DNA of 64,000 bases from the NCBI GenBank assembly GCA_903840015.1, contig CAIMEL010000004.1, forward strand, positions 97,452 through 161,451. The letters are read 5' to 3'. This document shows, piece by piece, positions 1,977 through 58,945 of this stretch; position 1 is the stretch's first letter, and every line of letters begins with the position of its first letter. Position numbers and translations under genes: made by a program. The notes below the pieces were generated by a model, which saw only the letters and a list, made by a program, of their open reading frames with translations, was not told the DNA's origin and ran no database searches. The stretch comes from an uncultured bacterium. Its GTDB lineage: Bacteria > Patescibacteriota > Dojkabacteria > SC72.

Positions 1977-3422
1977 CTAAATAGCACCCAATTTGTTTAG
2001 GAAATCAGGTATCTGGTAGATACCCAAGCTATGACTCCCTTTTAACAGAATGGATACTTTCTTCTCTTTCAAATTTGTTAATCGATCATTTAAAAGTGCA
2101 GCCATCTCATCAGCCGAATCTATCTGCTCTCCTACACTGAAATATTTATACATATCTCCGATATAATAGACTTCATCAAAATTTTGACTCTGGATCAACT
2201 CTCCAAGTGATTTATGCTTTGCTTCAGAAACCTCTCCCAATTCTTTCATATCACCAAGAACAGCTATTCTATGATATTCGGGAGAACTAAACATCGAAGA
2301 GAAAGTTTTCACAGACATTTCCATAGAGGTAGGATTTGCATTATATGCATCATTAATAATCACCAAATCATTTTCATACCTTAAGACTTCAAATCTACCT
2401 TTAGTTCCAACATATTTCTCTACATATTCTACACAATCCTGAATACTAACATGTAAAATGTTCGCAGCTATTATTGCGGCCATAGCATTATATGCATATC
2501 CTTCACCAAAGACCTTTAATTTAACTTCAATATCATTATCATAGTAATGGAAATGGAATCTCGTACCTTCCGAATCAACAGATATGTCAGATATTCTGAA
2601 ATCCGCAGATTCATCTTTACCAAAAGTGACAATTGGAGAATTTGCATTATACCTATTCTTTATTGTTACTAATCTTTCATCATCAATATTTAGAATCAAG
2701 GGTTTTCCTGTACGCTCCATATAGTCAGCAAGGTCTTTCTTCTCATTGAAAACCTCTTCTATACTTCCAAGCTTCTCAGCATGAACATGACCAATATTCA
2801 AAAGAATTCCAATATCTGGATCTACTGAATTAACATGCCATGCTATTTCACCCTTACTATCCATACCACACTCCAACACTACAGCCTTTTCATCAGAATA
2901 CTTACTTAATATTCTAGCATTCCCCCAAACCGTATTAGAGTTATCACCACTTAATACTTTCATCTTGCTTTCAAGAATCTTAACTAACATCTCTTTTGTT
3001 GTTGTTTTACCAGTACTTCCAGTTATTGCTACAATTGGTGACGTAATAGAGGATATAGAATAATTAAGTATTTTCTCTAATCCTTCCCTTATCGAATCAA
3101 CTAAGATGATTGGTTTCTCAAGATCTCCCAATTGCCCACACTTCCCATTCTCACAAAGACTTACAGATGCACCTTTTTGTAATGCTTCAGAGATATAGTC
3201 ATGGCCATCGAATCTTTCACCTACAATTGGTATAAACAAGTCATTCTCTGATATCTCTCGCGAGTCATGATTAAAAGCTGTAAAGAAAACATTCTCATCA
3301 TAGTTTCTTATTTCAAACTCTGGATATTTCTCTTTTATTTCTTTAAGGAAGATTTTCATTTGTAAATTGGACAAATTTATATACTTCAATATATTAGTTC
3401 TGAAAGTTTTTTTCAATAACAA
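1977..3422 (-). CDS. murF: UDP-N-acetylmuramoyl-tripeptide--D-alanyl-D-alanine ligase (MurF).
   Basis: Carries the Mur-ligase P-loop VAITGSTGKTTTKEML. The N-terminal region FNHDSREISENDLFIPIVGERFDGHDYISEA is the MurF/MurE-type substrate domain. Length is 481 aa. Confidence 0.8.
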   Translation of the reverse strand: MLLKKTFRTNILKYINLSNLQMKIFLKEIKEKYPEFEIRNYDENVFFTAFNHDSREISENDLFIPIVGERFDGHDYISEALQKGASVSLCENGKCGQLGDLEKPIILVDSIREGLEKILNYSISSITSPIVAITGSTGKTTTKEMLVKILESKMKVLSGDNSNTVWGNARILSKYSDEKAVVLECGMDSKGEIAWHVNSVDPDIGILLNIGHVHAEKLGSIEEVFNEKKDLADYMERTGKPLILNIDDERLVTIKNRYNANSPIVTFGKDESADFRISDISVDSEGTRFHFHYYDNDIEVKLKVFGEGYAYNAMAAIIAANILHVSIQDCVEYVEKYVGTKGRFEVLRYENDLVIINDAYNANPTSMEMSVKTFSSMFSSPEYHRIAVLGDMKELGEVSEAKHKSLGELIQSQNFDEVYYIGDMYKYFSVGEQIDSADEMAALLNDRLTNLKEKKVSILLKGSHSLGIYQIPDFLNKLGAI

Positions 3423-3530
3423 TATCTATCGGACAAAGAGAGGAATTTCCAACAAACAGAAATATGTACCACAGAAAAAACATTTTGTACTATCCTAGAG
3501 TGTCATATTCCAGCCTGTAGTTATTTTTTC

Positions 3531-3559
3531 TTGACTCTATATATACCCAATGGTAAATT
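3531..3559 (+). promoter_or_regulatory. Putative sigma-70-type promoter of the mraZ operon: -35 TTGACT (3531-3536), a 17-nt spacer, then -10 TAAATT (3554-3559).
   Basis: The sequence was read directly, and the spacing to the mraZ ATG at 3607 is appropriate. Confidence 0.4.
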
Positions 3560-3560
3560 G

Positions 3561-3594
3561 GTGGAAAGAAGTGGCAGAAAGTGGAAAAAGGTGA
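3561..3594 (+). promoter_or_regulatory. Candidate MraZ operator: four direct GTGG/GTGA repeats with exact 10-bp periodicity (3561, 3571, 3581, 3591), between the -10 element and the mraZ start codon.
   Basis: The motif gtggaaagaa / gtggcagaaa / gtggaaaaag / gtgatatatt was seen directly. MraZ is known to bind direct repeats spaced by one helical turn upstream of its own operon. Confidence 0.45.
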
Positions 3595-3606
3595 TATATT
3601 TGAAAT

Positions 3607-4050
3607 ATGTTAATAGGAGAGTATAGAAGTAAAATTGGAGAGAAAAAGAGAGTGTCACTTCCGAAGCGCTTTTTGAAGGAATTGGGCGAAAACCTTATTC
3701 TAACAAGAGGATACGAAAAGGCATTAGTGCTGGTAAACAAGGAGATGTGGGAGAAAATAGCACAGAATGTCATAAATGGCTCTTTCACAAACAAAGATAT
3801 CAGAGATACTAGCAGATTCTTGGTTGGAGGTGCAAAGGAAATCAATTTAGATTCTCAAGGGAGATTCATAATACCAGAAGCACTTTTTGAACATTCTTCT
3901 TTACAAAAAGACATTGTCTTTATTGGACTAGTTAACTGGATAGAGATATGGGATGAGTCACTCTGGAAAGAAAGAGTCGCATATTTACAAGAACATGGAG
4001 AAGAAATAGCGGAGGAGATAAATAAGATGACTACCAATTCTAATGCATAA
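3607..4050 (+). CDS. mraZ: Transcriptional regulator MraZ.
   Basis: The N-terminus MLIGEYRSKIGEKKRVSLPKRF is typical of MraZ, and the second half-domain contains DSQGRFIIP. It is the first gene of the dcw operon. Confidence 0.85.
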   Translation: MLIGEYRSKIGEKKRVSLPKRFLKELGENLILTRGYEKALVLVNKEMWEKIAQNVINGSFTNKDIRDTSRFLVGGAKEINLDSQGRFIIPEALFEHSSLQKDIVFIGLVNWIEIWDESLWKERVAYLQEHGEEIAEEINKMTTNSNA

Positions 4051-4939
4051 GATTCATATTCCAGTTCTTCTAAGAGAGAGTATCGATTCCTTAGCAATCA
4101 AACCAAATGGTTTCTACATAGACTGTACACTTGGAGATGGAGGACATAGTATAGAGATACTACGAAAACTCTCACCAGAAGGTGTACTACTAAGTATAGA
4201 CAGAGATCAGAATGCTATAGATTTTGTAAAATCATTTTACAATGAAGAATCAAAGCAAGATAACTGGAAAATTGTAAAAGCAAATTTCAAAGAGCTAGAT
4301 TATTACGCTAAAGAGATTAGAAATTCTGCAGATGGAGTTTTAATGGACTTGGGCCTATCTTCAAGACAACTAGAGGAATCACACAACAGAGGATTTAGCT
4401 ATTTAGAGGAGAAAGAACCTCTAGACATGAGAATGGATATGGAATTGGGAGTAACTGCTAAAGATTTGATAAATGTCCTTCCTGAAAAGGAACTTTACCA
4501 GATATTTAAAATATACGGCGAAGAGAAATACTCATATCAAATAGCTAAAGCAATTAAAAGAAATATTTCTGATATCAATACAGTTGGAGATCTTACAAGG
4601 CTTATCTACAAGGTAATGCCAGCAGTCAACTTACATAAGAACCCTTCACGCAGGGTCTTTCAGGCCCTGCGGATAGTGGTAAATGATGAGTTGAACAGCT
4701 TAAAGGAAGGTTTAGATAACTCTTTTAAGATCTTAAACAACGGAGGGAGACTATCCGTAATCTCCTTTCATTCTTTAGAAGATCGAATTGTAAAACAATT
4801 TTTTTTAGAAAAATCGAGAAGCGGAGAAGGGGAATTGCTTTTCAAAAATCATATAGCCCCAACCGATGAAGAAGAAAAGCAAAACCCTAGATCCGCTTCA
4901 GCTAAGTTAAGAACACTTACAAAACATGACAACCCGTAG
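4043..4939 (+). CDS. rsmH: 16S rRNA (cytosine1402-N4)-methyltransferase RsmH (MraW).
   Basis: The N-terminus HIPVLLRESIDSLAIKPNGFYIDCTLGDGGHS matches RsmH. It sits immediately downstream of mraZ with overlapping start and stop. Confidence 0.85.
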   Translation: MHKIHIPVLLRESIDSLAIKPNGFYIDCTLGDGGHSIEILRKLSPEGVLLSIDRDQNAIDFVKSFYNEESKQDNWKIVKANFKELDYYAKEIRNSADGVLMDLGLSSRQLEESHNRGFSYLEEKEPLDMRMDMELGVTAKDLINVLPEKELYQIFKIYGEEKYSYQIAKAIKRNISDINTVGDLTRLIYKVMPAVNLHKNPSRRVFQALRIVVNDELNSLKEGLDNSFKILNNGGRLSVISFHSLEDRIVKQFFLEKSRSGEGELLFKNHIAPTDEEEKQNPRSASAKLRTLTKHDNP

Positions 4940-9784: not shown

Positions 9785-10469
9785 AGATACACACCCACTC
9801 TCCGTGTGGAGAATCTTTCAAATTATCTTCAAGCAACTGATCTCTAACTCCGGATATACTACCAAAATAGTGCTTCTCTCTTAGCTTGGAAATATCTCTT
9901 GCTAAGAAACAAGTAACATCTGGTGAAATAGTTTCAACAAGTTCCAACAAATCAAATAATCTATTTGGTGATTCATACACAACCAATGTGCTACCTAAAG
10001 ACAGATATTTTTCTAAAAGTTTAGTCTTTTTACTTGAGGTCTTAGGAAGAAATCCGAGAAAACAGAATTTGTCTGTAGGTAAACCGGAAACAGATAATGC
10101 AGCTACTATGGCAGAGGGGCCTGGAATTGGTATAACCTCATACTCTTGTGCTCTAAGTTCAGCGACCAACCTGTATCCAGGGTCAGATATCAGGGGAGTA
10201 CCGCAATCTGAAATGAGAGCAAGATCCAAACCCATATTCAATTTCTCAAGTATTTTAGCCATCATCATACTATGATTCTGATCTCTGTAAGAAACTAATG
10301 TAGAGGGGATATCGTATCTATCCAATAGTTTTCGTGATTCTCTAGTATCTTCAGCAAGAATGAAAGGGACTTTCTTTAAAGTTTCAACAGCACGCATCGT
10401 AATATCTTCCAGATTACCGATTGGAGTAGCAACTACATAGAGTTTTCCTTTATTCATCTTTGATATCAT
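9768..10469 (-). CDS. rsmI: 16S rRNA (cytidine1402-2'-O)-methyltransferase RsmI.
   Basis: The motif KGKLYVVATPIGNLEDITMRAVETLKKVPFILAEDTRESRKLL is the diagnostic tetrapyrrole-methylase-fold RsmI N-terminus. Confidence 0.85.
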   Translation of the reverse strand: MISKMNKGKLYVVATPIGNLEDITMRAVETLKKVPFILAEDTRESRKLLDRYDIPSTLVSYRDQNHSMMMAKILEKLNMGLDLALISDCGTPLISDPGYRLVAELRAQEYEVIPIPGPSAIVAALSVSGLPTDKFCFLGFLPKTSSKKTKLLEKYLSLGSTLVVYESPNRLFDLLELVETISPDVTCFLARDISKLREKHYFGSISGVRDQLLEDNLKDSPHGEWVCIFNSAE

Positions 10470-11187
10470 CTAAATTTAAAACACATTCCATTAAATCTAC
10501 TTTGTCTAGATCTTTTGAATTAACTGCTGAATTTACAGAAAACTTCCCAATCTGTTCCCTCCTCAGGGAAATTGCTGTTGCATAGCTATTTAGTTTCTTG
10601 CCTAAATCATCTATCAAAGTTCTAATGTAGGTACCTGTTGAACATCTAGCATGAAATGTAACTAAAGGCCAATCATATTTTAAGATTTGAAATTCACCGA
10701 TATTGATATCCTTCTTTTCTAAAATGACTTCCTTTCCCTCTCTAGCAAGAGTATATGCTTTTTGGCCATTGATCTTCTTTGCAGAGTAACTCGGTGGGAG
10801 CTGTGAGATTTTCCCTTTGAAATAATTCTCTATGACAGCTTCTATTTCAGATTGTGGGATGGGAGTTGAGGTCTCTGCTTTGGAAATTTTTGTTCCTGTA
10901 GAATCCTGTGTATCTGTAGCATATCCGAATTCACCTGTCACTATATATACTTTTTCCTCTTGATGAAACTTTTCCATTAATTTAGTTCCTCTACCAAGTA
11001 AAACTATTAAGAGTCCAGTGGCAAAGGGATCTAGAGTACCTGCATGACCGATTTTTTGTCCTTTGGGTAATATCTTTTTCAGTTTTCTAATTACATCATA
11101 TGATGTAATACCTTCCTCCTTGTCTATTAGCAAGATTCCATCTATCATATACTGTAAATTAATATTATCATTGATATGATACCACAA
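10450..11187 (-). CDS. truB: tRNA pseudouridine(55) synthase TruB.
   Basis: The motif GILLIDKEEGITSYDVIRKLKKIL...GHAGTLDPFATGLL matches the TruB catalytic Asp region. Confidence 0.85.
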   Translation of the reverse strand: MWYHINDNINLQYMIDGILLIDKEEGITSYDVIRKLKKILPKGQKIGHAGTLDPFATGLLIVLLGRGTKLMEKFHQEEKVYIVTGEFGYATDTQDSTGTKISKAETSTPIPQSEIEAVIENYFKGKISQLPPSYSAKKINGQKAYTLAREGKEVILEKKDINIGEFQILKYDWPLVTFHARCSTGTYIRTLIDDLGKKLNSYATAISLRREQIGKFSVNSAVNSKDLDKVDLMECVLNLDDIKDE

Positions 11188-11723
11188 TGTTAAACGGCAT
11201 TACCTTAGCAATTGTTATGATATTGATTCTACTTACTGCAGGTTTTGTTCTAACCGTTCTCATTAGTGCATTTTTAGTACCTCTGTTTAAAACTCCAAGA
11301 GATGTGTTAGAGGAGATAGTTACGATAATGGATTTAACAAAAAATGATGTTTTGGTTGATCTTGGAAGTGGAGATGGTAGATTAATATTACAAGCATATG
11401 AACAATCTAGGTGTAAATGTTTCGGGTATGATATCTCTCCTATGATGATGATACATGCAAATACAAACAAGAATTTAACTTTTCCCTTTACTAAAGATAT
11501 TGTATTCCAACCAGAAGATATCTTTAAAGTTAGTTTGAAAGATGCAACAAAGATCTATTGTTATCTTGAACCAAAGAGTTTAGATATATTGAAAACAAAA
11601 CTAAAAGAATTTGTAGAGAAGAAAGGAGAGATATTTAGTTACAAATATCCTATCGAAGGATTAAAGAACGGTAAAGAAATTATTCTCAGTAATGATGTCC
11701 CACTATATATCTACAGAGGGTAG
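11187..11723 (+). CDS. Membrane-anchored class I SAM-dependent methyltransferase-like protein.
   Basis: An N-terminal TM segment is followed by the methyltransferase motif I VLVDLGSGDGRL. Confidence 0.45.
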   Translation: MLNGITLAIVMILILLTAGFVLTVLISAFLVPLFKTPRDVLEEIVTIMDLTKNDVLVDLGSGDGRLILQAYEQSRCKCFGYDISPMMMIHANTNKNLTFPFTKDIVFQPEDIFKVSLKDATKIYCYLEPKSLDILKTKLKEFVEKKGEIFSYKYPIEGLKNGKEIILSNDVPLYIYRG

Positions 11724-11795
11724 AAGAGGGGAATAAATGTAATACTGAGAAACAGTAAACAGAGATTCCCCTCTTGGGTTCTACCGGAATGGGTA

Positions 11796-12134
11796 TTATT
11801 GCGCGAACAGGAAACTTGTTGACAGCCAAAAGGCTCCAAGCAGTGGTAGAAGAGTTAGTATAACAGCAACGATGCTGAGAAAATCTTTCTTCTCCTTCTT
11901 GGCAAGCTCCCAGAGCTCTATTGAGAAACTCAACAGAAAAACAAGGCATGTGGTGAACATAAAATTTGCATTCACGCCATCATTGACTCGTAGAACGAAA
12001 TACACAACGAGAACGATAGTATAAATAGCAAATTGAACATAGTTCAACTTCCTTTTCTGCGATACTCCTTGCACAAGGTTTATGTTGGCAAGCAAAAGCA
12101 TTGCCCCAAAGTACAGCAAATCTAATCCGTTCAT
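11796..12134 (-). CDS. Small hypothetical membrane protein with about 4 predicted TM helices. Its coding status is uncertain.
   Basis: The ORF translation is uniformly hydrophobic with four helix-length segments. No similarity was recognised. Confidence 0.25.
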   Translation of the reverse strand: MNGLDLLYFGAMLLLANINLVQGVSQKRKLNYVQFAIYTIVLVVYFVLRVNDGVNANFMFTTCLVFLLSFSIELWELAKKEKKDFLSIVAVILTLLPLLGAFWLSTSFLFAQ

Positions 12135-12336
12135 GTTATCTCCTTTTTTTGAATTTGGTAGAACCCAATATACCCTCGATTAAGAGAACATATTGGGTTA
12201 CCAAATTGAAAAGGAGTCCGGTAAAACTTTTAATGAGCAGTTTCCATATATCAATAGAAATTAATATACAGAGACACATATTATACTATAGGGCAAACAG
12301 AATCTCAACTCACTCTTAATACTGTATAATAACAAT

Positions 12337-13536
12337 ATGGCAATCTATGAACCCTTAGCATCAAAATACAGGCCCAAAACTTTGGATGACTTTGTTGGTC
12401 AAGAACACCTAATTGGTGAAAATGGTCCTCTTCGAAAATTCATTCAAAGTGGAAAAATTCCATCTATGATCTTCTGGGGTCCTCCGGGGACAGGAAAAAC
12501 AACATTAGCATATATACTCTCTTTAAATCTGTATTACGATTTCCATAAACTTCAAGCAGTGACAAGTGGGAAAGACACTTTGAGGAAGATAATAAAGATA
12601 GCGCTTGGGAATCAACAGTATGGCAAAAAGACAATACTCTTTCTTGATGAGATACATAGGTGGAACAAAGCACAACAGGATGCTCTTTTACCATACGTAG
12701 AGAAAGGTATCATAATACTCATTGGGGCTACAACAGAAAACCCATCATTTACAGTTAATAGTGCTTTACTCTCAAGAACAAAAGTATTTGTGTTCAAACA
12801 ACAGACAGAAGAAGATATATCCAAACTCTTAAAGAGAATAGCTAAGACAGAGTATCCTGACATTAAGATAGGGAAGAAGGGTTTTGAAATGATGGCAAAT
12901 CTTTCCAATGGAGATATTCGTTCTGGATTAAATATATTGGAAATGGCTACAACCTTAGCAGAAACAACCAAATCTAAAACCCTAACAGAGGAAACCATAA
13001 AAGAAACTATCCAGAAACCTGTATACTACGACAAAACAGGAGAGGAGCATTACAATATAATCTCTGCAATACACAAATCTATGAGATCTTCAAACCCTGA
13101 TGCCGCTAGTTATTGGGTCGGCAGAATGTTAAGTGGAGGGGAAGACCCACTTTACATAGCACGAAGATTGTTAAGATTTGCTAGCGAAGATATTGGGAAC
13201 GCAGATCCACAGGCGGTAATACTAGCTAATTCTGTATATGAAGCGTGCCAGAAGATTGGTATGCCTGAGTGTGAAATATTTCTCATACAGCTAACCATAT
13301 ATCTAGCAAAAGCTCCAAAAGACAACACTGCATATGTAGTAGAGCGTTTAGTCAAAGAAGATATTGAGAAATTTGGAAATCTACCAGTACCTTTAAATAT
13401 TCGAAATGCTGAAAGCGAATTAATGAGAGAAATAGGGTATGGTAAAGGATATGAGTACGATCATGATCTACCAAGCAAAAAATCTACCCAGCAATGTTTA
13501 CCTGACAAATTGAAAAATCGTAAATATATTAATTAA
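12337..13536 (+). CDS. rarA: Replication-associated recombination protein A (RarA/MgsA AAA+ ATPase).
   Basis: Contains Walker A GPPGTGKTTLAYIL and Walker B ILFLDEIHRWNKAQQD. The C-terminal motif WVGRMLSGGEDPLYIARRLLRFASEDIGNADPQA is characteristic of RarA. Confidence 0.9.
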   Translation: MAIYEPLASKYRPKTLDDFVGQEHLIGENGPLRKFIQSGKIPSMIFWGPPGTGKTTLAYILSLNLYYDFHKLQAVTSGKDTLRKIIKIALGNQQYGKKTILFLDEIHRWNKAQQDALLPYVEKGIIILIGATTENPSFTVNSALLSRTKVFVFKQQTEEDISKLLKRIAKTEYPDIKIGKKGFEMMANLSNGDIRSGLNILEMATTLAETTKSKTLTEETIKETIQKPVYYDKTGEEHYNIISAIHKSMRSSNPDAASYWVGRMLSGGEDPLYIARRLLRFASEDIGNADPQAVILANSVYEACQKIGMPECEIFLIQLTIYLAKAPKDNTAYVVERLVKEDIEKFGNLPVPLNIRNAESELMREIGYGKGYEYDHDLPSKKSTQQCLPDKLKNRKYIN

Positions 13537-43990: not shown

Positions 43991-44572
43991 ATGAACTTAA
44001 TACCTACAGTTATTGAGAAGGAAAGAGGAGGGGAGAGGGCATATGATATCTACTCCCGTTTACTGAAGGATAGGATCATATTTGTGAGTGGCCATATAGA
44101 AACAAATATGTCCAATACAGTAATCGCCCAACTTCTTTTTTTAGAGAAAGAGAATCCAGATGAAGATATACAGATGTTCATAAATTCTCAAGGCGGCCAG
44201 GTTACAGCAGGGATGGCAATACTTGATACCATGAACTATATAAAATGCGATGTTTCAACAATTGCAGTAGGACTTGCAGCATCAATGGGTACTGTATTAC
44301 TCTCCTCAGGGACGAGAGGAAAGCGATTTGCACTGCCTAACAGTAAGATACATATTCATCAACCATTGGGAGGAGTAGAGGGCCAAGCAAGTGATATAGC
44401 TATAGAGGCAGAGGAGATATTGAAGACAAGAGAAACCCTTTACAAAATTCTTTCTGAGAACAGCAAGCAAGCCATTAAACAGATAGAGAAAGATGCAGAT
44501 AGAGATAAATATTTTACTGCGAAAGAAGCAAAAGAGTATGGCTTGATAGATAAAGTAATTAGAAAAAGATAG
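43991..44572 (+). CDS. clpP: ATP-dependent Clp protease proteolytic subunit ClpP.
   Basis: The motif [37 protein letters not shown] is followed by the catalytic Ser context [11 protein letters not shown] and a His in HIHQP. Confidence 0.9.
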
Positions 44573-44574
44573 CT

Positions 44575-45093
44575 ATGAATCTAGACGATCCTACACAAAC
44601 AGAACAAGATAACAAACAAGAGGCACTATCAACAATCTTATTCAATATCAACCAGATGTATGAGCACGCTACAGAGGATGATATTCTTTCAGACACAATT
44701 TACGATGTCTCACTTCCAGAGGTTTATGCCTACCTTCAACAGATAGAGCAGGACCAAGACTCTCCAATAAAACTTTTACGAATAAGATATGTTTCTGTGC
44801 AGGATTTCGATACCATTGCAACAATCTACGATTATACTCAAGTGTATCCTGAGACAGAGGCACCATACAATCAAAGAATCTACTTTATTGAAGGGGCCGA
44901 TTTTGCATTAACCCTAATGCCAATAGAGGAGAAGAAAGGACAAATACAGATACATATGACAGCATTAGACGCCTCCCCAGATTTCATTACAGAGATGTTT
45001 GCAGAATTGGACAGGAAAAAATCTTTCGAAGATTTGGGATTGATTAAAGCCTCTCAATTGAAACCAACCACTAAGAAAAAAGCTAAGTCTTAA
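44575..45093 (+). CDS. Acidic hypothetical protein.
   Basis: The ORF is 172 aa with no recognised motif. Its 3' end overlaps the convergent doc gene by 11 nt. Confidence 0.4.
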   Translation: MNLDDPTQTEQDNKQEALSTILFNINQMYEHATEDDILSDTIYDVSLPEVYAYLQQIEQDQDSPIKLLRIRYVSVQDFDTIATIYDYTQVYPETEAPYNQRIYFIEGADFALTLMPIEEKKGQIQIHMTALDASPDFITEMFAELDRKKSFEDLGLIKASQLKPTTKKKAKS

Positions 45094-45846: not shown

Positions 45847-46854
45847 ATGACAAATACCATAAAATACCTTCTTGGAATCTTCTTAATCTCACTTGTATTC
45901 TTCCAATTAAACATAATCCCTGCGAAAGCGAATGAAAACCCAATACTCTTTTGGGGAGTAGGATGTACATACTGTGAAGAATTAAAGGATCAAGTTAAAG
46001 CAGAGAAATTGGAAGAGAATATAACGATAGAATATAAAGAGATTTACAACAACAAGGAGGATCTCACACTTTTCAAAGAAAAGATAAAAGAGTGCAATGT
46101 ACCAAATGAACAAGCAGTCATCCCCATGGTCTACATAGATGGGATATGTACATTTGGTGTAGATGATTCTATGAAGATATTAAAGGCTAAGATTGCAGGG
46201 GAGAACCTTGATAATCTCTTCGAGAACACACCAACAGGACTATCAAAAGGCCAGAAGAATACTATCATAATGTTGGCGGGCGTCTTCGTAATGCTTGCCG
46301 GTTTATTCTCTTTCGGTCTTTTAATCCAGGGTAGAAAAAACAAGAAAATCCAAATTGCAACAATATTGGCATTGATATTGGTAACATTCTTCTCTTCGAC
46401 AACTTCTGCACAGGCAATCTGCCCAATCTGTACTGTTGCTGTGGGTGCTGGCCTGGGACTTTCAAGATATTTAGCTATTGATGACTTAATAACAAGCATA
46501 TGGATAGGGGGATTAATTGTATCTACAATATTCTGGATGATAGATTGGCTTGCAAAAAAGAACAGGAAAAGTGTCTTAACAAAGATTATTACAGTCGTTC
46601 TTACATATCTTCTTGTTTTGGTCCCACTGTATTGGAGTGGTATAATAGGACACTTATTTAACACTATGTGGGGAATAGATAAAATCTTACTTGGAATAAT
46701 ATTGGGAAGTTTAGGATTCTTCTTAGGAGCACAGTTACATTTTTACTTGAAGAGAAAGAATTCTGACAAAACATATATACCTTTTCAAAAAGTAATTTTC
46801 CCTGTAGGTACACTATGGCTCTTAACATTAATCTTCTATTTCATTGTTTACTAA
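45847..46854 (+). CDS. Exported glutaredoxin/thioredoxin-like domain (CTYC) fused to a polytopic membrane domain bearing a second CxxC (CPIC). It is a putative thiol-disulfide oxidoreductase.
   Basis: A signal peptide is followed by GVGCTYCEELK, with VIPMVYIDGICTFG showing a Grx-like fold pattern, and then about 6 TM helices. The motif AQAICPICTVAVGAG sits at a helix start. Confidence 0.5.
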   Translation: MTNTIKYLLGIFLISLVFFQLNIIPAKANENPILFWGVGCTYCEELKDQVKAEKLEENITIEYKEIYNNKEDLTLFKEKIKECNVPNEQAVIPMVYIDGICTFGVDDSMKILKAKIAGENLDNLFENTPTGLSKGQKNTIIMLAGVFVMLAGLFSFGLLIQGRKNKKIQIATILALILVTFFSSTTSAQAICPICTVAVGAGLGLSRYLAIDDLITSIWIGGLIVSTIFWMIDWLAKKNRKSVLTKIITVVLTYLLVLVPLYWSGIIGHLFNTMWGIDKILLGIILGSLGFFLGAQLHFYLKRKNSDKTYIPFQKVIFPVGTLWLLTLIFYFIVY

Positions 46855-51300: not shown

Positions 51301-51702
51301 ATGGAATCTAAAAACACAATCCTAGATAATTCAGGACAACAATCCCTTAGTGAGGTAAAAATTGATTCATATCAAATGATATTAATATATTCCTTCCAGA
51401 ATTTTTTAAGATGGTGGTATATTAAAATGCCTCTATGGCATCTTAGAAGGTTAGCAAGATTAAGCACAGTTGTAGATGATCAATTCTCCATCTCCCTTCT
51501 TCTTAAGAACTTTTTCATCCCATGGCATCGTGATTACTCAGCTATCGGTATTTTGTTTGGAATTGTAATGAAACTTCTTTATTTACCAATAGCTATAACG
51601 ATTTATTTGATCTCAGTCATATTCTATATTGCTATTACAATTGGATGGGTACTACTACCAATAGCGACTATTGTTTTCATATTAACCTCTATATTTAGAT
51701 AA
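51301..51702 (+). CDS. Small membrane protein (2-3 TM), co-oriented with and 2 nt upstream of the ClpC-like ATPase gene.
   Basis: The ORF is hydrophobic at its C-terminus (LYLPIAITIYLISVIFYIAITIGWVLLPIATIVFILTSIF). Confidence 0.4.
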   Translation: MESKNTILDNSGQQSLSEVKIDSYQMILIYSFQNFLRWWYIKMPLWHLRRLARLSTVVDDQFSISLLLKNFFIPWHRDYSAIGILFGIVMKLLYLPIAITIYLISVIFYIAITIGWVLLPIATIVFILTSIFR

Positions 51703-51704
51703 AG

Positions 51705-54425
51705 ATGGCATTAGACTTAGGAAGCAGAAAAAAAACATTAATAGGCTATCATGAGAAGAATAAGAATAGCTTTGGATTAATAGAAAAAGACTTTCCAATT
51801 ACCATAAATGAAAACGAATCACTCTTTACACTTACAAGAGACCATTTCTTTACTATCTCGTCACCACAGATAGAGTCTGTCCTAAAGAACTTCCTACGAT
51901 ACAAGAGGTTTAACGATATTAAAAGATTAATAGCAAATATTTTGGTATTTCCAGGATTGATAGTAGCCTTTGGGTATATTCTGAAATACTCCACATTACT
52001 AAACGATTATCCTCTTGTACTTAAGATATTAGAATACCCAATACTAAGTGTACTATTTGGAGTTTCGATATTAAGTGTAATAACTCTGTGGCATGATTTC
52101 TACGAGGACAAAAGTCACCCAGTACAACTCCCCAAAATAAAGAAAATCTCACAAAAGGATATTGACGAGATCAAGGCAACAGGCTTTAAATTTGGAAGAT
52201 ATGGGCATCTTGAAACTATCCATTTCGCAGGAGAAGAACTCTTAGAATACCTCTGTATATATACAATACATGGACAATTCAACACCTTAGCTCTTTACAG
52301 GGATCTTCTAGAAAACAATTTTGAGGTACAACAATTAATACGGAAATCAGGTATGGAATTTGATATAAATCTCTTTGAGCAGGAGGGTATTAATTCCGAG
52401 ACCATTCCTAATTACCCACAAACAGCCATAAGAAGCTTTCTGACATATGCAATAGAGGAGGCACTCCTAACGGAGAGCAAAGATTTACAACCACAACATC
52501 TCTTCCTAGCTATAACAAAGATATTTCCTGCCATACAGAAACTCTTGAAAAAGAACAATATCTCTATAGATATCCTTAGAGAAATAGTTGTTTACAACAA
52601 CAACGAAATTACCAGAAACTTAAGAACACAGTATCTCGATCCAAATATTCCTTACTACAAGAAGGGTGGAGTCGCAAAACAATGGATATATGGATATACA
52701 TTCATTCTTAGCCATTTTAGTAAGGAAATTAATAAAATAGTGGCGCAATCTAGAGATATATTCGGAATAGGACATGACGAGGAGGTCGATGCATTAGTTG
52801 CAGCACTTGGCAAACTTACAAACAAGAATGCATTGCTCATAGGAGAGCCAGGTGTTGGTAAATCGAGCCTAATACTTGGACTTGCTCAAAGGATTAATTC
52901 TGCGGATGTTCCACCACAGCTTAAAGATAAAAGAATTATTGAGTTTGATTTGAATGGATTAATTGCAATATCCAAGAAGGATGGAAATACAGAGGAATTA
53001 ATAATTAAGGCAATGCGCGAGCTAGAGAAAGCAGGTAATACGATTCTTTACATTGATGAAATACAGGAAATTATACCAAGGAAGGCAGAGGAATCCGGCC
53101 ATTCAATAGCGGGCATACTTCTTCCTTTCATATTGAATAGTAAATTTCCAATTATCGGAAGTATTAACTATTCTGATTACAAAAAGTATTTCTACAGTAA
53201 CGAATCACTAAGACAGAGTTTTACAAATATTGAGACAAAAGAGGTGAGTGGAGCTGATGCATTGAGAATATTGGAGAGCAAGGTGCACTCCTTAGAGAGA
53301 AATTTCAACTGCTATATTACCTTCCCAGCATTAGTGGCCTCTGTCGACTTAGCACAAAGATATATAAAGGAGAGGAAGTTACCAAGTAGTGCAGTGCAAA
53401 CCATCGAAGCAACATGTGCATGGGCACAATCTAATGGAATACAAAAGATAACCGCAGAACATGTCTCTAAGGCTGTTTCCTTACAGAAAAATATCAACAT
53501 AACAGCAATCGATCAGGAAGAAGGCAATCGATTGATGAAACTAGAGGAAAATATTAAGAGTAGAGTGGTAGGACAAGATGAAGCCATAGTCGCAGTTACA
53601 GAAGCCCTGAGGAGGGCCAGAACAGATATTAGAAATCCTAACAAACCAATAGGGACATTTCTCTTCATCGGACCGACTGGTGTTGGAAAAACACACCTGG
53701 CGAAGGTTGTTGGAGAAGAATTTTTTGGTATTGAGGAAAACATTATTAGGGTAGATATGTCAGAGTATCAGGATATACCAAGTATAAACAAATTCTTAGG
53801 TTCTGCAGGGGATGAGAATATAATGGGACAATCCTCCATCTCACTAATAGACAAGATTAAGAGTAATCCATATACAGTTGTTCTGTTTGACGAGATAGAG
53901 AAAGCACATCCTCAAATTCTGGATCTTTTCCTACAACTTTTTGATGAAGGCAGATTAACCAGCAATCAAGGAGAAACAGTAGATTTTACAAATTCCATTA
54001 TGATATGTACAAGTAATATAGGGAGTAAAATACTTCTCGAAGCCTTAGAAAACGACCAATCCCTATGGGAAGAGGCAAAAGAGAGGGCTTTGCTTGAATT
54101 AAGGCAATCTATCAAACCGGAATTACTAAACCGATTTGATAAAGTTATTGTATTTTCTCCACACGACACAAGCAATTTAGCTCAAATAGCAACACTCTTA
54201 CTCACAGATTTGGCAAAGCGACTATCAGAGAAGGGCATAACGATAACTTGGTCCTCACAAATACCTATGTTAATTGCAAACAAGTCAAATGAGCCCGGAC
54301 TTGGAGCACGTCCAATGAAGAGATATATCCAAGATAGGATAGAAGGTCAAATTGCAAAAGGATTGATAGAAAACAGTATAGAATCAGGAACTGAGGTTGT
54401 AATTAAAGAAAGTTGGATAATTTAG
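51705..54425 (+). CDS. ClpC/ClpB-like double-ring AAA+ unfoldase with an N-terminal extension containing two predicted TM helices.
   Basis: D1 has Walker A GEPGVGKSS and Walker B ILYIDEIQEI. D2 has Walker A GPTGVGKTHLAK, Walker B VVLFDEIEKAHP and the sensor GARPMKRYI. Clp_N-like repeats are present. Residues ~75-130 (LIANILVFPGLIVAFGYIL... and ILSVLFGVSILSVITLW) are hydrophobic helices. Confidence 0.75.
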   Translation: MALDLGSRKKTLIGYHEKNKNSFGLIEKDFPITINENESLFTLTRDHFFTISSPQIESVLKNFLRYKRFNDIKRLIANILVFPGLIVAFGYILKYSTLLNDYPLVLKILEYPILSVLFGVSILSVITLWHDFYEDKSHPVQLPKIKKISQKDIDEIKATGFKFGRYGHLETIHFAGEELLEYLCIYTIHGQFNTLALYRDLLENNFEVQQLIRKSGMEFDINLFEQEGINSETIPNYPQTAIRSFLTYAIEEALLTESKDLQPQHLFLAITKIFPAIQKLLKKNNISIDILREIVVYNNNEITRNLRTQYLDPNIPYYKKGGVAKQWIYGYTFILSHFSKEINKIVAQSRDIFGIGHDEEVDALVAALGKLTNKNALLIGEPGVGKSSLILGLAQRINSADVPPQLKDKRIIEFDLNGLIAISKKDGNTEELIIKAMRELEKAGNTILYIDEIQEIIPRKAEESGHSIAGILLPFILNSKFPIIGSINYSDYKKYFYSNESLRQSFTNIETKEVSGADALRILESKVHSLERNFNCYITFPALVASVDLAQRYIKERKLPSSAVQTIEATCAWAQSNGIQKITAEHVSKAVSLQKNINITAIDQEEGNRLMKLEENIKSRVVGQDEAIVAVTEALRRARTDIRNPNKPIGTFLFIGPTGVGKTHLAKVVGEEFFGIEENIIRVDMSEYQDIPSINKFLGSAGDENIMGQSSISLIDKIKSNPYTVVLFDEIEKAHPQILDLFLQLFDEGRLTSNQGETVDFTNSIMICTSNIGSKILLEALENDQSLWEEAKERALLELRQSIKPELLNRFDKVIVFSPHDTSNLAQIATLLLTDLAKRLSEKGITITWSSQIPMLIANKSNEPGLGARPMKRYIQDRIEGQIAKGLIENSIESGTEVVIKESWII

Positions 54426-54483
54426 TTGAAAAGACAACTGTTATTACATATAATCTCTGAGTTAATATATATTAATTATTGAT

Positions 54484-56474: not shown

Positions 56475-57203
56475 TTACTCTTTTAACTCTTCAGCCTTTT
56501 TAGAGAATATCCCAATTACATCAGCGTACTGAGTATACTCATTGAATGCTGCGTAGTAATCAACCTTGTAGGCTCTCTCAGGGACATAATATCCTATGAC
56601 TCCCAAATCAACACGCCATAGCTCTCCCGTTTTCTTAAAAGAAATATTATCTGCAGAGATTATATAAGGGGATGCAGAATACAAGCTATCCAAGAAACTT
56701 AAGATATCTTGCAAAGTACCAGTATATGATAAAGGTCCACTCACTCCTAGGTAAGATTTTTTCTCATTATTTTTGTCCTTGTTCGTGAACGAAACAGTAA
56801 CATCCCCAGCAGACAGAGATTTTGATGTAAGATTCTTCTCATTTGCCAAAGTATCTATGTAATATACAAACATAGACACCCTCAAAGTCTTTGGTATAAC
56901 ACTCTTGGCATTTAGCAAATCCACTTGCATAGTTGCATCATCTATTCCTTTTAATTTCGCCTCTAATTTAACCAAAGTATCTTCCTTTTGCTTTAGAGAT
57001 TCATATTCCTGTTGAAAAGCTATTGTAGCCTTTATCATTGGTACAAACACAAAGATACTCAACATTAGTAATATAATGGTTGCTGCAGCAGGTATTAAAA
57101 TATCCTCCACCTTTACTTTGGAGTCTTTTATTTTCTCGCTTATTGCTTCCAACTCCTTTTTTGTTTTATTACCCTCTGGTTGTTTGTTCGATAATGTTTG
57201 CAT
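56475..57203 (-). CDS. pilO: Type IV pilus assembly protein PilO-like.
   Basis: Its architecture is a short cytoplasmic N-terminus, one TM, a coiled coil and an alpha/beta domain. It is the last gene of the pilM-pilN-pilO operon, 1 nt after pilN. Confidence 0.55.
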   Translation of the reverse strand: MQTLSNKQPEGNKTKKELEAISEKIKDSKVKVEDILIPAAATIILLMLSIFVFVPMIKATIAFQQEYESLKQKEDTLVKLEAKLKGIDDATMQVDLLNAKSVIPKTLRVSMFVYYIDTLANEKNLTSKSLSAGDVTVSFTNKDKNNEKKSYLGVSGPLSYTGTLQDILSFLDSLYSASPYIISADNISFKKTGELWRVDLGVIGYYVPERAYKVDYYAAFNEYTQYADVIGIFSKKAEELKE

Positions 57204-57204
57204 A

Positions 57205-57921
57205 TTACTTACTATCTACTTTTAGGAAATTATCTAAAACAAAAGATCCGTAGAAAGAGAAAGTTACATCTTGAGAACTCTTCCCAACAGCCCTTAGAGA
57301 TATCTTTTCTATTCTCGAATCATTACCCAAAAGATACCATAGTTTAGCAACATCCTCTAAACTCTGTGCTTTCCCAGTGAATTCAATCCCATTCAATCCT
57401 GTAAAGGCAAAGGCCGTTAATGTACAATTGGTTTTACTAGTAATACCATTAATATATTCAAGTACTGCCTTTGCAGAATATCTACCTTTTTCAATATCAT
57501 TATACAAATATATTCTGTCTAAGATCTCATTGTTTCCAATAATCTTTTGAGATAACCCCTCAACCTGAGCTTCACTTTTTATTAATTTCTCCTTCTCAGC
57601 ATTCAGCTGAAATTTAAAAACTATGTTCAAGCCGACAATGAGAATAGAGATAACAAAAAGAATAATGAGGCTTACTATTGCACTCATATTAATCTTTTTC
57701 TTTTTTTCTTCTGTCTGAACCTCTTCCTTACTAAGGATTGGGATGAGATTAATACCACCATCAGATGCAATCACAGTATCTGGCACCTCACTTTTGGGTT
57801 TCAATGGGTGAGCAAGAGGAGTGGTTGCATTCTTTCCAAGGGTATCAGTGGCTGCAACAGGTACTGGTTTTGCCTGAGGTTCTATCTGCTTATTGTTATC
57901 AACAGGTGGAGTATTATTCAT
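57205..57921 (-). CDS. pilN: Type IV pilus assembly protein PilN-like, with a ~50-aa Pro-rich N-terminal extension.
   Basis: The conserved PilM-binding motif INLIP (consensus INLLP) is followed by a single TM and a periplasmic-type domain. It overlaps pilM by 8 nt. Confidence 0.65.
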   Translation of the reverse strand: MNNTPPVDNNKQIEPQAKPVPVAATDTLGKNATTPLAHPLKPKSEVPDTVIASDGGINLIPILSKEEVQTEEKKKKINMSAIVSLIILFVISILIVGLNIVFKFQLNAEKEKLIKSEAQVEGLSQKIIGNNEILDRIYLYNDIEKGRYSAKAVLEYINGITSKTNCTLTAFAFTGLNGIEFTGKAQSLEDVAKLWYLLGNDSRIEKISLRAVGKSSQDVTFSFYGSFVLDNFLKVDSK

Positions 57922-58945
57922 CTTTCATTGCTAAACCAATAGCAACCGAATAGGAGGGTCCGCTCTTGGCTATTATGTCCTTAAATTTATTGTCAACTGC
58001 AATATTGTTCCATGGCATAGACATCGTAGCGTTTACACCAAGACTCTTAGATACATACTCCTTCAATCCAGGTAAAAGGGCTCCATCGCCATTAAGCATA
58101 TAGTCAGTAGGAGCAACAGAGAGAGTTCGGTTTTTGTAAAATTCAACACCTCTTCTTACCTCAACCATAATGGATTCTACAATTGGACTCAAAACTGAAT
58201 ATATTTTGCCCTCCAAAACATTCTCAACAAGTCCATAATTTCGTTTAAATTCTTCAGCTCTCTGATACTCAAAATTGAATTTATTAATAACAGCCTGAGT
58301 TAATGAGTCCGAACCGATAGCTATACTCTGAGAGAAAACTAAATATCCATCGGAGAGAATACTCATATCAGTACTATTTGCACCAAAATCTAACATTATT
58401 AAGTCCTTCTTGCCACTTGATTTATACATAGCTCTTCCCATTGCAACAGATTCCGTCTCTATAGCTATTAAATCTAGGGAAGACAAAACAGCAATATTGA
58501 TATATATATCGATAACTTTTCTTGGGGCGGCAACAACCAAAACTCTCGGAGCATTCTTCTCTGTATTAAAACCTATTGGTACATAACTAAGTTGAACTTC
58601 ATTCAATGGCATAGGTATGTACTGTTTAGCTTCAAAGTACACCGCATCCTTTAATTCTTCTGCTTTCACACCAGGGAATTCTAAAAACCTAGTAAAGACT
58701 GAGAATTCAGGTAAAGCCATAACGACATTCTTATTCTTAATACGAGAAGAGTCATAGAGCTTTTTTAATACATCCGCAAGTTTACGTTGATCACTCTTAT
58801 CTTCACTATTAATAACTCCCTTTGGAGTCAGTTGAGATCCAAGATTAACTAACAATGGATTTGCAGAGGATATACGACTAAGTTCAACAGCTTTAACTGA
58901 ATGCGTTCCGAAGTCTATACCAACATGATCGGGCAGTTTGGCCAT
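57914..58945 (-). CDS. pilM: Type IV pilus assembly ATPase-like actin-fold protein PilM.
   Basis: The N-terminus VGIDFGTHSVKAVEL is an actin/FtsA-like phosphate-1 motif. It is ~343 aa and lies immediately upstream of pilN. Confidence 0.75.
   Translation of the reverse strand: MAKLPDHVGIDFGTHSVKAVELSRISSANPLLVNLGSQLTPKGVINSEDKSDQRKLADVLKKLYDSSRIKNKNVVMALPEFSVFTRFLEFPGVKAEELKDAVYFEAKQYIPMPLNEVQLSYVPIGFNTEKNAPRVLVVAAPRKVIDIYINIAVLSSLDLIAIETESVAMGRAMYKSSGKKDLIMLDFGANSTDMSILSDGYLVFSQSIAIGSDSLTQAVINKFNFEYQRAEEFKRNYGLVENVLEGKIYSVLSPIVESIMVEVRRGVEFYKNRTLSVAPTDYMLNGDGALLPGLKEYVSKSLGVNATMSMPWNNIAVDNKFKDIIAKSGPSYSVAIGLAMKDE

Follow-up and report, generated by a model that had tools for sequence, protein, structure and literature searches.

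A predicted membrane-anchored Hsp100-family ATPase encoded with a small membrane protein

A 64-kb stretch of DNA from an uncultured bacterium of the Dojkabacteria (positions 97,452 to 161,451 of contig CAIMEL010000004.1, assembly GCA_903840015.1; hereafter the window, with a G+C content of ~35%) encodes a double AAA+ ATPase of the Hsp100 family that carries a predicted two-helix transmembrane (TM) hairpin ahead of its ATPase rings, and whose gene directly follows that of a small membrane protein. On balance, we favour the view that this ATPase is a non-proteolytic, membrane-embedded Hsp100-family remodeller working with the small membrane protein as an obligate partner. Textbooks present Hsp100/Clp ATPases as soluble machines, and membrane anchoring among AAA+ enzymes of quality control is known from other clades, namely those of FtsH, archaeal LonB and Msp1. 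In open-access papers and preprints we found no description of a membrane-anchored Hsp100, ClpB or ClpC, nor of this protein in Dojkabacteria or other members of the Candidate Phyla Radiation (CPR).

The two open reading frames (ORFs) lie where a preliminary description of this DNA, made from its letters, had placed them, and both start with ATG; the TAA stop codon of the small ORF is followed by two nucleotides and then by the ATG of the ATPase gene. Public proteins identical or 82–88% identical in sequence are labelled as Candidatus Dojkabacteria (WS6; CPR/Patescibacteria). The features discussed below are the following, with residue numbers referring to the protein concerned.

51301..51702, + strand: gene of the small membrane partner, 133 residues, ATG start
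51397..51537, + strand: positively charged cytoplasmic or interfacial helices of the small protein, residues 33–79 (alignments, AlphaFold2)
51538..51696, + strand: hydrophobic stretch of the small protein, ~53 residues, 80–132 (hydropathy)
51705..54425, + strand: gene of the predicted membrane-anchored Hsp100-family double AAA+ ATPase, 906 residues, ATG start
51738..51854, + strand: four-strand N-terminal cytoplasmic mini-domain with motifs KT..G.H and TRDHFF, residues 12–50 (AlphaFold2 and conservation)
51927..51989, + strand: predicted TM1 (LIANILVFPGLIVAFGYILKY), residues 75–95 (hydropathy, Hessa sums, flanking charge)
52026..52094, + strand: predicted TM2, ending in the conserved interfacial LWHD[FY]Y, residues 108–130 (hydropathy, Hessa sums, AlphaFold2 helix 112–137)
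52152..52622, + strand: divergent Clp_N-fold domain, residues 150–306
52650..52739, + strand: family-specific linker Y.[KR].GG[IV]...W.YG[YF]TF.L..FS.D[IL], residues 316–345 (column identity 0.78)
52740..53414, + strand: first AAA+ module (D1), lacking an M-domain insertion, residues 346–570 (Pfam AAA, AAA_lid_9)
52965..52988, + strand: D1 pore-loop-1 equivalent AISKKDGN, residues 421–428 (aligned to AGTKYRGE of ClpC)
53415..54422, + strand: second AAA+ module (D2) with the D2-small domain, residues 571–906 (Pfam AAA_2, ClpB_D2-small)
53799..53831, + strand: D2 pore-loop-1 equivalent GSAGDENIMGQ, residues 699–709 (aligned to GSPPGYVGY of ClpC)
54012..54074, + strand: site after sensor-1 where ClpC and ClpA bear the ClpP-docking loop, here absent, residues 770–790 (alignment to ClpC)

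The predicted N-terminal membrane hairpin and the start of the ATPase

The preliminary description had quoted two hydrophobic segments near the N-terminus of the ATPase and had read them as a two-helix membrane anchor. Both segments are real, at residues 75–95 and 113–132, and hydropathy, Hessa-scale sums and the distribution of charges concur in predicting such an anchor. Over 19-residue windows the Kyte-Doolittle means reach 2.29 (residues 75–93) and 2.07 (residues 108–126), and the best-scoring hydrophobic windows of the N-terminus hold no charged residue. Additive sums on the Hessa scale, computed with hand-entered scale values, amount to 0.8 kcal/mol for TM1 and 1.7 kcal/mol for TM2, versus a protein-wide median of 19.6. 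The net charge is +3.6 in the flank before TM1, –1.1 in the 12-residue loop between the helices (residues 96–107) and –0.2, that is about neutral, in the flank after TM2. These charges fit a predicted topology with the N-terminus inside, the loop outside and the C-terminus inside, the only topology that would keep the ATPase rings on the cytoplasmic side.

When genomes were scanned with the first 345 residues of the ATPase, 51 species-level loci were returned, nearly all from Dojkabacteria, with 35–69% identity. The N-terminal extension, whose occurrence in related genomes had been raised in the preliminary description, is kept in all of them: TM1 has a Kyte-Doolittle value of 1.9–2.9 at residues 74–79 in 51/51 loci, and a second hydrophobic peak at residues 102–116 exceeds the threshold of 1.6 in most. 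Averaged over the orthologues, the Hessa sum is 0.1 for TM1 and 2.7 for TM2, whereas the best of all other segments of the protein has 7.1. For residues 1–72 the column identity is 0.63, for the hairpin 0.61 and for residues 131–345 0.62, and it is the hydrophobic character of the hairpin that is conserved, the residues themselves being variable. The complete ORF measures 893–907 residues in 42 orthologues, and in most of the 51 loci the shared start methionine is preceded by just 0–7 in-frame codons. Shortened copies were also encountered, the ORF ending at 520 residues in L014 (6001–7563) and at 546 residues in P0005, on a 395-kb contig; such premature stops in some metagenome-assembled genomes would be either assembly errors or pseudogenes.

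Two findings would have spoken for an artefact, namely that the hydrophobic segments belong to a soluble N-domain as buried helices, or that the true start is located downstream of them; neither was obtained. It is true that AlphaFold2 alone cannot separate a TM helix from a buried helix and that TM2 is weaker than TM1. Nonetheless, there are two charge-free segments of 19–21 residues with Kyte-Doolittle means above 2, their hydrophobicity is kept while the sequence varies over the 51 species and 17 distant representatives (see below), the charges follow the positive-inside pattern, the start methionine is conserved with few in-frame codons ahead of it, and residues 1–130 are as constrained as the Clp_N domain. 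We thus consider the artefact largely refuted at the sequence level and give it almost no chance.

The hairpin is set between the N-terminal mini-domain and the divergent Clp_N fold. In the AlphaFold2 model of residues 1–345 (mean predicted local distance difference test score, pLDDT, of 80), the mini-domain comprises strands 12–17, 22–25, 38–43 and 47–50 with pLDDT of 82–91, and its residues T11, G14, H16, T44, R45, D46, F48 and F49 are invariant among close relatives. It is followed by a long helix (53–95) that holds TM1, a short one (103–109), a third (112–137) that holds TM2, and a helical domain at 150–306 in which we recognized the double Clp_N N-terminal domain typical of ClpC. The linker between the Clp_N fold and D1 has low pLDDT in this isolated N-terminal model, and its motif is still recognizable in the most distant relatives. 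Residues 1–350 gave no meaningful match in Pfam, NCBIfam or PADLOC. A paralogy of the small ORF with the N-terminus of the ATPase was considered and rejected (BLASTP E-value of 0.11).

The small membrane partner and the conservation of the gene pair

The proposal of a two-gene membrane module, also made in the preliminary description, is strongly supported by gene order. In 49/49 Dojkabacteria loci with enough DNA, the small ORF immediately precedes the ATPase gene, at a distance of –10 to +10 nucleotides that suggests translational coupling of the two, and it still adjoins the ATPase gene in the six loci from which dus, the next gene upstream, has been relocated. No match to the 133-residue protein was found in Pfam, NCBIfam or PADLOC. 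None of its 125 homologues (131–137 residues) has a name other than "hypothetical", and wherever an organism label is given, it is that of Dojkabacteria.

The small protein combines two regions of different character. Residues 33–79 bear a net charge of +2.9 and the motif WWY..MP.WHL..L.R.S.V.DD..S.S.L...FF.PWHRD, with W38, W39, R53, D60, S63, P74, W75, H76, R77 and D78 invariant and the core PW[HKR]x[DN] retained in the majority of distant relatives; AlphaFold2 places helices at residues 24–62 and 64–69, with pLDDT above 90. Residues 80–132 have Kyte-Doolittle values of up to 2.57 and Hessa sums of 1.4 and –2.3, hold no acidic residue and, in the window protein, contain a single lysine (K91). 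This stretch probably forms a tight two-helix hairpin; a single tilted helix is the alternative, in line with the one long helix (81–132) of the AlphaFold2 model.

The pair extends beyond the Dojkabacteria. Orthologues of the ATPase form more than 120 clusters at 59–100% identity, and when 1.84 billion cluster representatives were searched with a profile of its N-terminal region, only 50 proteins were retrieved at E ≤ 1e-3, 20 of them at E ≤ 1e-30, which is a narrow distribution. N-terminal TM-like segments are borne by 17/17 full-length distant representatives (792–939 residues). Two distant clusters carry organism labels, one reading Patescibacteria group bacterium and the other Pacearchaeota, the latter possibly through mis-binning. 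We examined five distant Patescibacteria loci whose neighbouring genes are unrelated (L052, L054, L056, L057 and L058). In 5/5 of them the ATPase gene is preceded by a small ORF, in one case previously uncalled as a gene, with either a gap of a few nucleotides or an overlap of 4–16 nucleotides between the two, and all five small ORFs match the hidden Markov model of the Dojkabacteria small protein (hmmsearch, E-values from 2.7e-38 to 2.5e-3). That the linkage has outlasted such divergence and rearrangement argues strongly that small protein and ATPase form a functional pair.

The two AAA+ rings and the place of the ATPase in the Hsp100 family

The preliminary description had called the protein a ClpC-like double AAA+ unfoldase. 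As it had stated, both rings are intact. Pfam matches to the ATPase are AAA (residues 377–478), AAA_lid_9 (517–605), AAA_2 (PF07724; 647–813, E-value of 6e-46) and ClpB_D2-small (PF10431; 823–900, E-value of 2e-17). Walker A and B read GEPGVGKSS and ILYIDE in D1, GPTGVGKTH and VVLFDE in D2, and the sensor-2 GARPMKRYI is found at residues 867–875. Across 43 orthologues, Walker A/B, sensor-1, arginine fingers and sensor-2 are conserved in both rings, including the arginine of SLRQSF in D1 and, in D2, the TSN of sensor-1, the arginine finger of NRFD and the GARP of sensor-2. While these motifs bear out an ATPase, the unfolding activity implied by the earlier name is uncertain because the pore loops are degenerate.

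Residue-level comparisons were made by alignment to Bacillus subtilis ClpC. At the position of the D1 pore tyrosine the window protein has a lysine, and the 43 sequences have lysine (26), glycine (8), asparagine (5), arginine (2) or serine (2); the D1 loop as a whole is hypervariable and free of aromatic residues in 36/43 orthologues. The D2 loop, of variable length and with the pattern [IVLM]?[LFYM]G, keeps a hydrophobic or aromatic residue ahead of its glycine in 40/43 Dojkabacteria orthologues (leucine in 18, phenylalanine in 14, tyrosine in 4, methionine in 3, isoleucine in 1; alanine in 1, and a gap in 2). A ClpP-docking loop of the IGF/LGF kind, for which D2 had been proposed as the place to look, was not found. 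The ATPase has a six-residue gap exactly opposite the ClpC docking loop RNKYVGF; no docking tripeptide follows sensor-1 in any of the 43 orthologues; and no [ILVM]G[FLMIY] tripeptide occurs in D2 of the window protein, whose two instances (IGY13 and LGL391) both lie outside D2.

With an AAA_2-type D2, a C-terminal D2-small domain and a GAR sensor-2, which together define the broad Hsp100/Clp family, the 906-residue protein is, on sequence criteria, an Hsp100/Clp-family type II AAA+ ATPase. Its best sequence matches in the PDB are ClpC (369 bits), ClpB (366 bits) and ClpA (297 bits). With ClpC it shares the Clp_N fold and two AAA+ modules with their Walker, sensor and arginine-finger motifs, but the label "ClpC-like" does not hold: the ClpC M-domain (ClpC residues 398–455) has no counterpart, the AAA_lid_9 match being contiguous, the VGF/IGF-type ClpP loop is missing, and the tyrosines of the ClpC pore loops KYRG (D1) and GYVG (D2) are not kept. 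Against the ClpB model of NCBIfam (TIGR03346) the ATPase scores 458 bits versus a cut-off of 1232, in a match that is split in two around the missing M-domain. Against the ClpA model (TIGR02639) it scores 403 bits versus a cut-off of 993; its D1–D2 junction resembles that of ClpA and aligns in one stretch, consistent with the lack of an M-domain, but there is no IGL-type ClpP loop. Judged from these comparisons, this ATPase is claimed by no curated family, and it falls outside ClpA, ClpB and ClpC on the defining tests of each. What it has in addition to all three is the mini-domain, the TM hairpin, the GG[IV]...W.YGYTF linker and the gene of an obligate small membrane partner. In public databases its orthologues are named "ClpC", "ClpA" or "AAA family ATPase".

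Other AAA+ systems at membranes offer partial likenesses. FtsH, the analogy drawn in the preliminary description, is an AAA+ hexamer in which each subunit is anchored at the cytoplasmic face by two TM helices near its N-terminus; its one AAA+ ring is fused to an M41 metalloprotease, and its two TM helices are separated by a periplasmic domain of ~70 residues. The predicted two-TM N-terminal anchor resembles that of FtsH, but the ATPase described here has two Hsp100 rings, a predicted outer loop of ~12 residues and, in place of the protease domain, a C-terminal ClpB_D2-small domain, with no Peptidase_M41 among its Pfam matches. Plasmodium HSP101, in the Plasmodium translocon of exported proteins (PTEX), and chloroplast Hsp93/ClpC are likewise Hsp100 proteins at a membrane with membrane partners; these are soluble, are recruited via protein–protein contacts and keep canonical pore loops and M-domains. 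Hsp93/ClpC works at the membrane with Tic110 and Tic40 (PMC2064699).

Proposed function and alternative explanations

If the ATPase is the membrane-embedded remodeller that we favour, 12 TM helices would hold its hexamer flat against the membrane on the cytoplasmic side, and the N- and C-termini would both be inside. The hairpin, the mini-domain or the Clp_N domain would contact the small partner, which might serve as anchor, adaptor or substrate-delivery subunit. ATP would drive the remodelling, extraction or disassembly of proteins embedded in the membrane or close to it, without their being passed to ClpP; D1 would probably serve mainly for assembly and regulation of the ATPase, and the hydrophobic-glycine loop of D2 in Dojkabacteria could still grip substrate. 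Several observations weigh against this proposal. The physical interaction between ATPase and small protein is deduced from gene linkage alone. TM2 is marginally hydrophobic in some orthologues (Hessa sum of up to 5.8). Among distant relatives, the D2 pore loop is wholly deleted in P0256, P0268 and P0289, and Walker A or B residues are lost from one or both rings in P0253, P0254, P0262, P0273 and P0278, which keep the TM hairpin and look like pseudo-ATPase derivatives. In view of these losses, the conserved activity may be one other than threading.

The same losses lead to the main rival, a Torsin-like, non-threading ATPase whose cycle would control a complex formed in the membrane with the small partner (such as a channel, a scaffold or a device for envelope remodelling) by changing its assembly state or its conformation. 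Torsins are relatives of Clp/Hsp100 proteins that have an N-terminal hydrophobic membrane domain, lack aromatic pore loops and act with transmembrane cofactors (PMC5425593). The non-aromatic, hypervariable D1 loop, the D2 loop that varies in length up to its deletion, the hairpin retained where Walker residues are gone, and the obligate, conserved membrane partner are all in keeping with this, and several orthologues give weak matches to the Torsin family PF06309. However, a Torsin has a single AAA+ module, is luminal and eukaryotic, and has its arginine finger supplied by LAP1 or LULL1, whereas the ATPase described here has two modules, each with its own arginine finger, so that its active site is complete without a cofactor, and its helical partner of ~130 residues has no AAA-like domain. 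The resemblance to Torsins is functional only. Moreover, the hydrophobic or aromatic residue before the D2-loop glycine in nearly all Dojkabacteria orthologues and a Clp_N fold typical of substrate- or adaptor-binding unfoldases, along with the intact arginine fingers, would favour some substrate engagement. We therefore regard the Torsin-like role as unlikely, and as decidedly unlikely a related arrangement in which the 12 TM helices and the partner hairpins build a membrane-embedded ring, that is a new, Patescibacteria-restricted AAA+ membrane machine without canonical pore loops, by which proteins or lipids might be extracted, inserted or passed through, or the envelope remodelled in a Torsin-like way.

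Two further possibilities arise from neighbouring genes. As the preliminary description had noted, ClpP is encoded separately in the window (43991..44572; PF00574, E-value of 8e-80), directly after the trigger factor gene, and the ATPase might form with it an FtsH-like membrane protease. The tig-clpP pair lies ~7 kb upstream of the module on the same strand with no clpX behind clpP, in L052 it recurs 2.4 kb ahead of the module, and an IGY tripeptide at residues 13–15 is partly conserved. Yet D2 lacks the docking tripeptide, with the gap located exactly at the VGF of ClpC; IGY13 sits in a predicted β-strand, not in a flexible loop, and the pattern fits 23/43 orthologues; and there is no clpP nearby in L054, L057 and L058, nor among the called genes of L056. 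An operonic link with clpP in L052 was rejected, a complete bacterial 16S rRNA gene lying in between (2871–4346; Rfam RF00177, 1495 bits). Since M-domain, ClpP loop and canonical pore tyrosines are missing, the link to ClpP has no basis in the sequence, and we hold a membrane-bound ClpP partner to be highly unlikely. Even less can be said for an ATPase of a type IV pilus, competence or other envelope machine, for instance one extracting or recycling pilins or bitopic proteins, to which we attach very little weight. In its favour, pilM and two probable pilN/O genes are found in the window downstream of the module, and L054 has genes for a prepilin peptidase, a pilin and PilC (10061–12667) at a distance of 2.4 kb on the downstream side. 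But the pilus genes of the window are on the opposite strand and none were found at L052, L056, L057 or L058; moreover, small CPR genomes contain many pilus genes, so that their proximity may be due to chance.

Genomic neighbourhood

The neighbours of the module in the window are housekeeping genes, encoding an ABC transporter, a KH-domain protein and the products of dus, rpmF, nusB, rnc and rpsP. A defence-system reading was rejected given this context and the generic AAA+ nature of the PADLOC matches (DolB, PDC-M37B). By tblastn (E ≤ 1e-2), neither clpX nor any other AAA+ paralogue was detected in the 64 kb. At 44575..45093 (+ strand), starting 3 nucleotides past clpP in the usual position of clpX, is an ORF for an acidic protein of 172 residues with no Pfam match. 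Another ORF, at 45847..46854 (+ strand), encodes 335 residues with no Pfam match at E ≤ 1e-5; its N-terminal signal-like segment, CxxC motif (GCTYCEE) and multi-helix hydrophobic C-terminal half suggest that it may be a membrane thiol-disulfide oxidoreductase. PilM and two unannotated ORFs in PilN/O position occupy 56475..58945 (– strand), 2–4.5 kb downstream of the module.

Promoter and terminator scans yielded fewer sites than in shuffled sequences and were uninformative; they gave no site between the small ORF and the ATPase gene. A near-consensus sigma-70-like promoter (TTGAAA, 17 nucleotides, TATAAT; 11/12 positions) was noted at 54426..54454 (+ strand), abutting the ATPase stop codon and 30 nucleotides 5' of rpmF. 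At the distant loci, Band_7/SPFH genes adjoin the module in L057 (6911–7801) and L058 (2565–3518), and a LemA gene does so in L054 (7703–8254). In other bacteria, FtsH has SPFH proteins as partners.

Significance

This lineage differs from the known Hsp100/Clp ATPases in four ways: it is predicted to be integrated in the membrane; it has an obligate small partner; it no longer has an M-domain, a ClpP loop or canonical pore loops; and it has kept both ATPase sites. Such a combination of features questions pore-loop threading as the conserved output of the Hsp100/Clp family. The current names "ClpC", "ClpA" and "AAA family ATPase" would mislead reconstructions of proteostasis in CPR bacteria. 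The gene pair also offers a genetically simple, prokaryotic two-gene system for studying Torsin-like, cofactor-dependent action of a membrane AAA+ protein and, if the membrane-ring or Torsin-like explanation were true, it would represent a bacterial counterpart or relative of the principle by which Torsins work with their cofactors.

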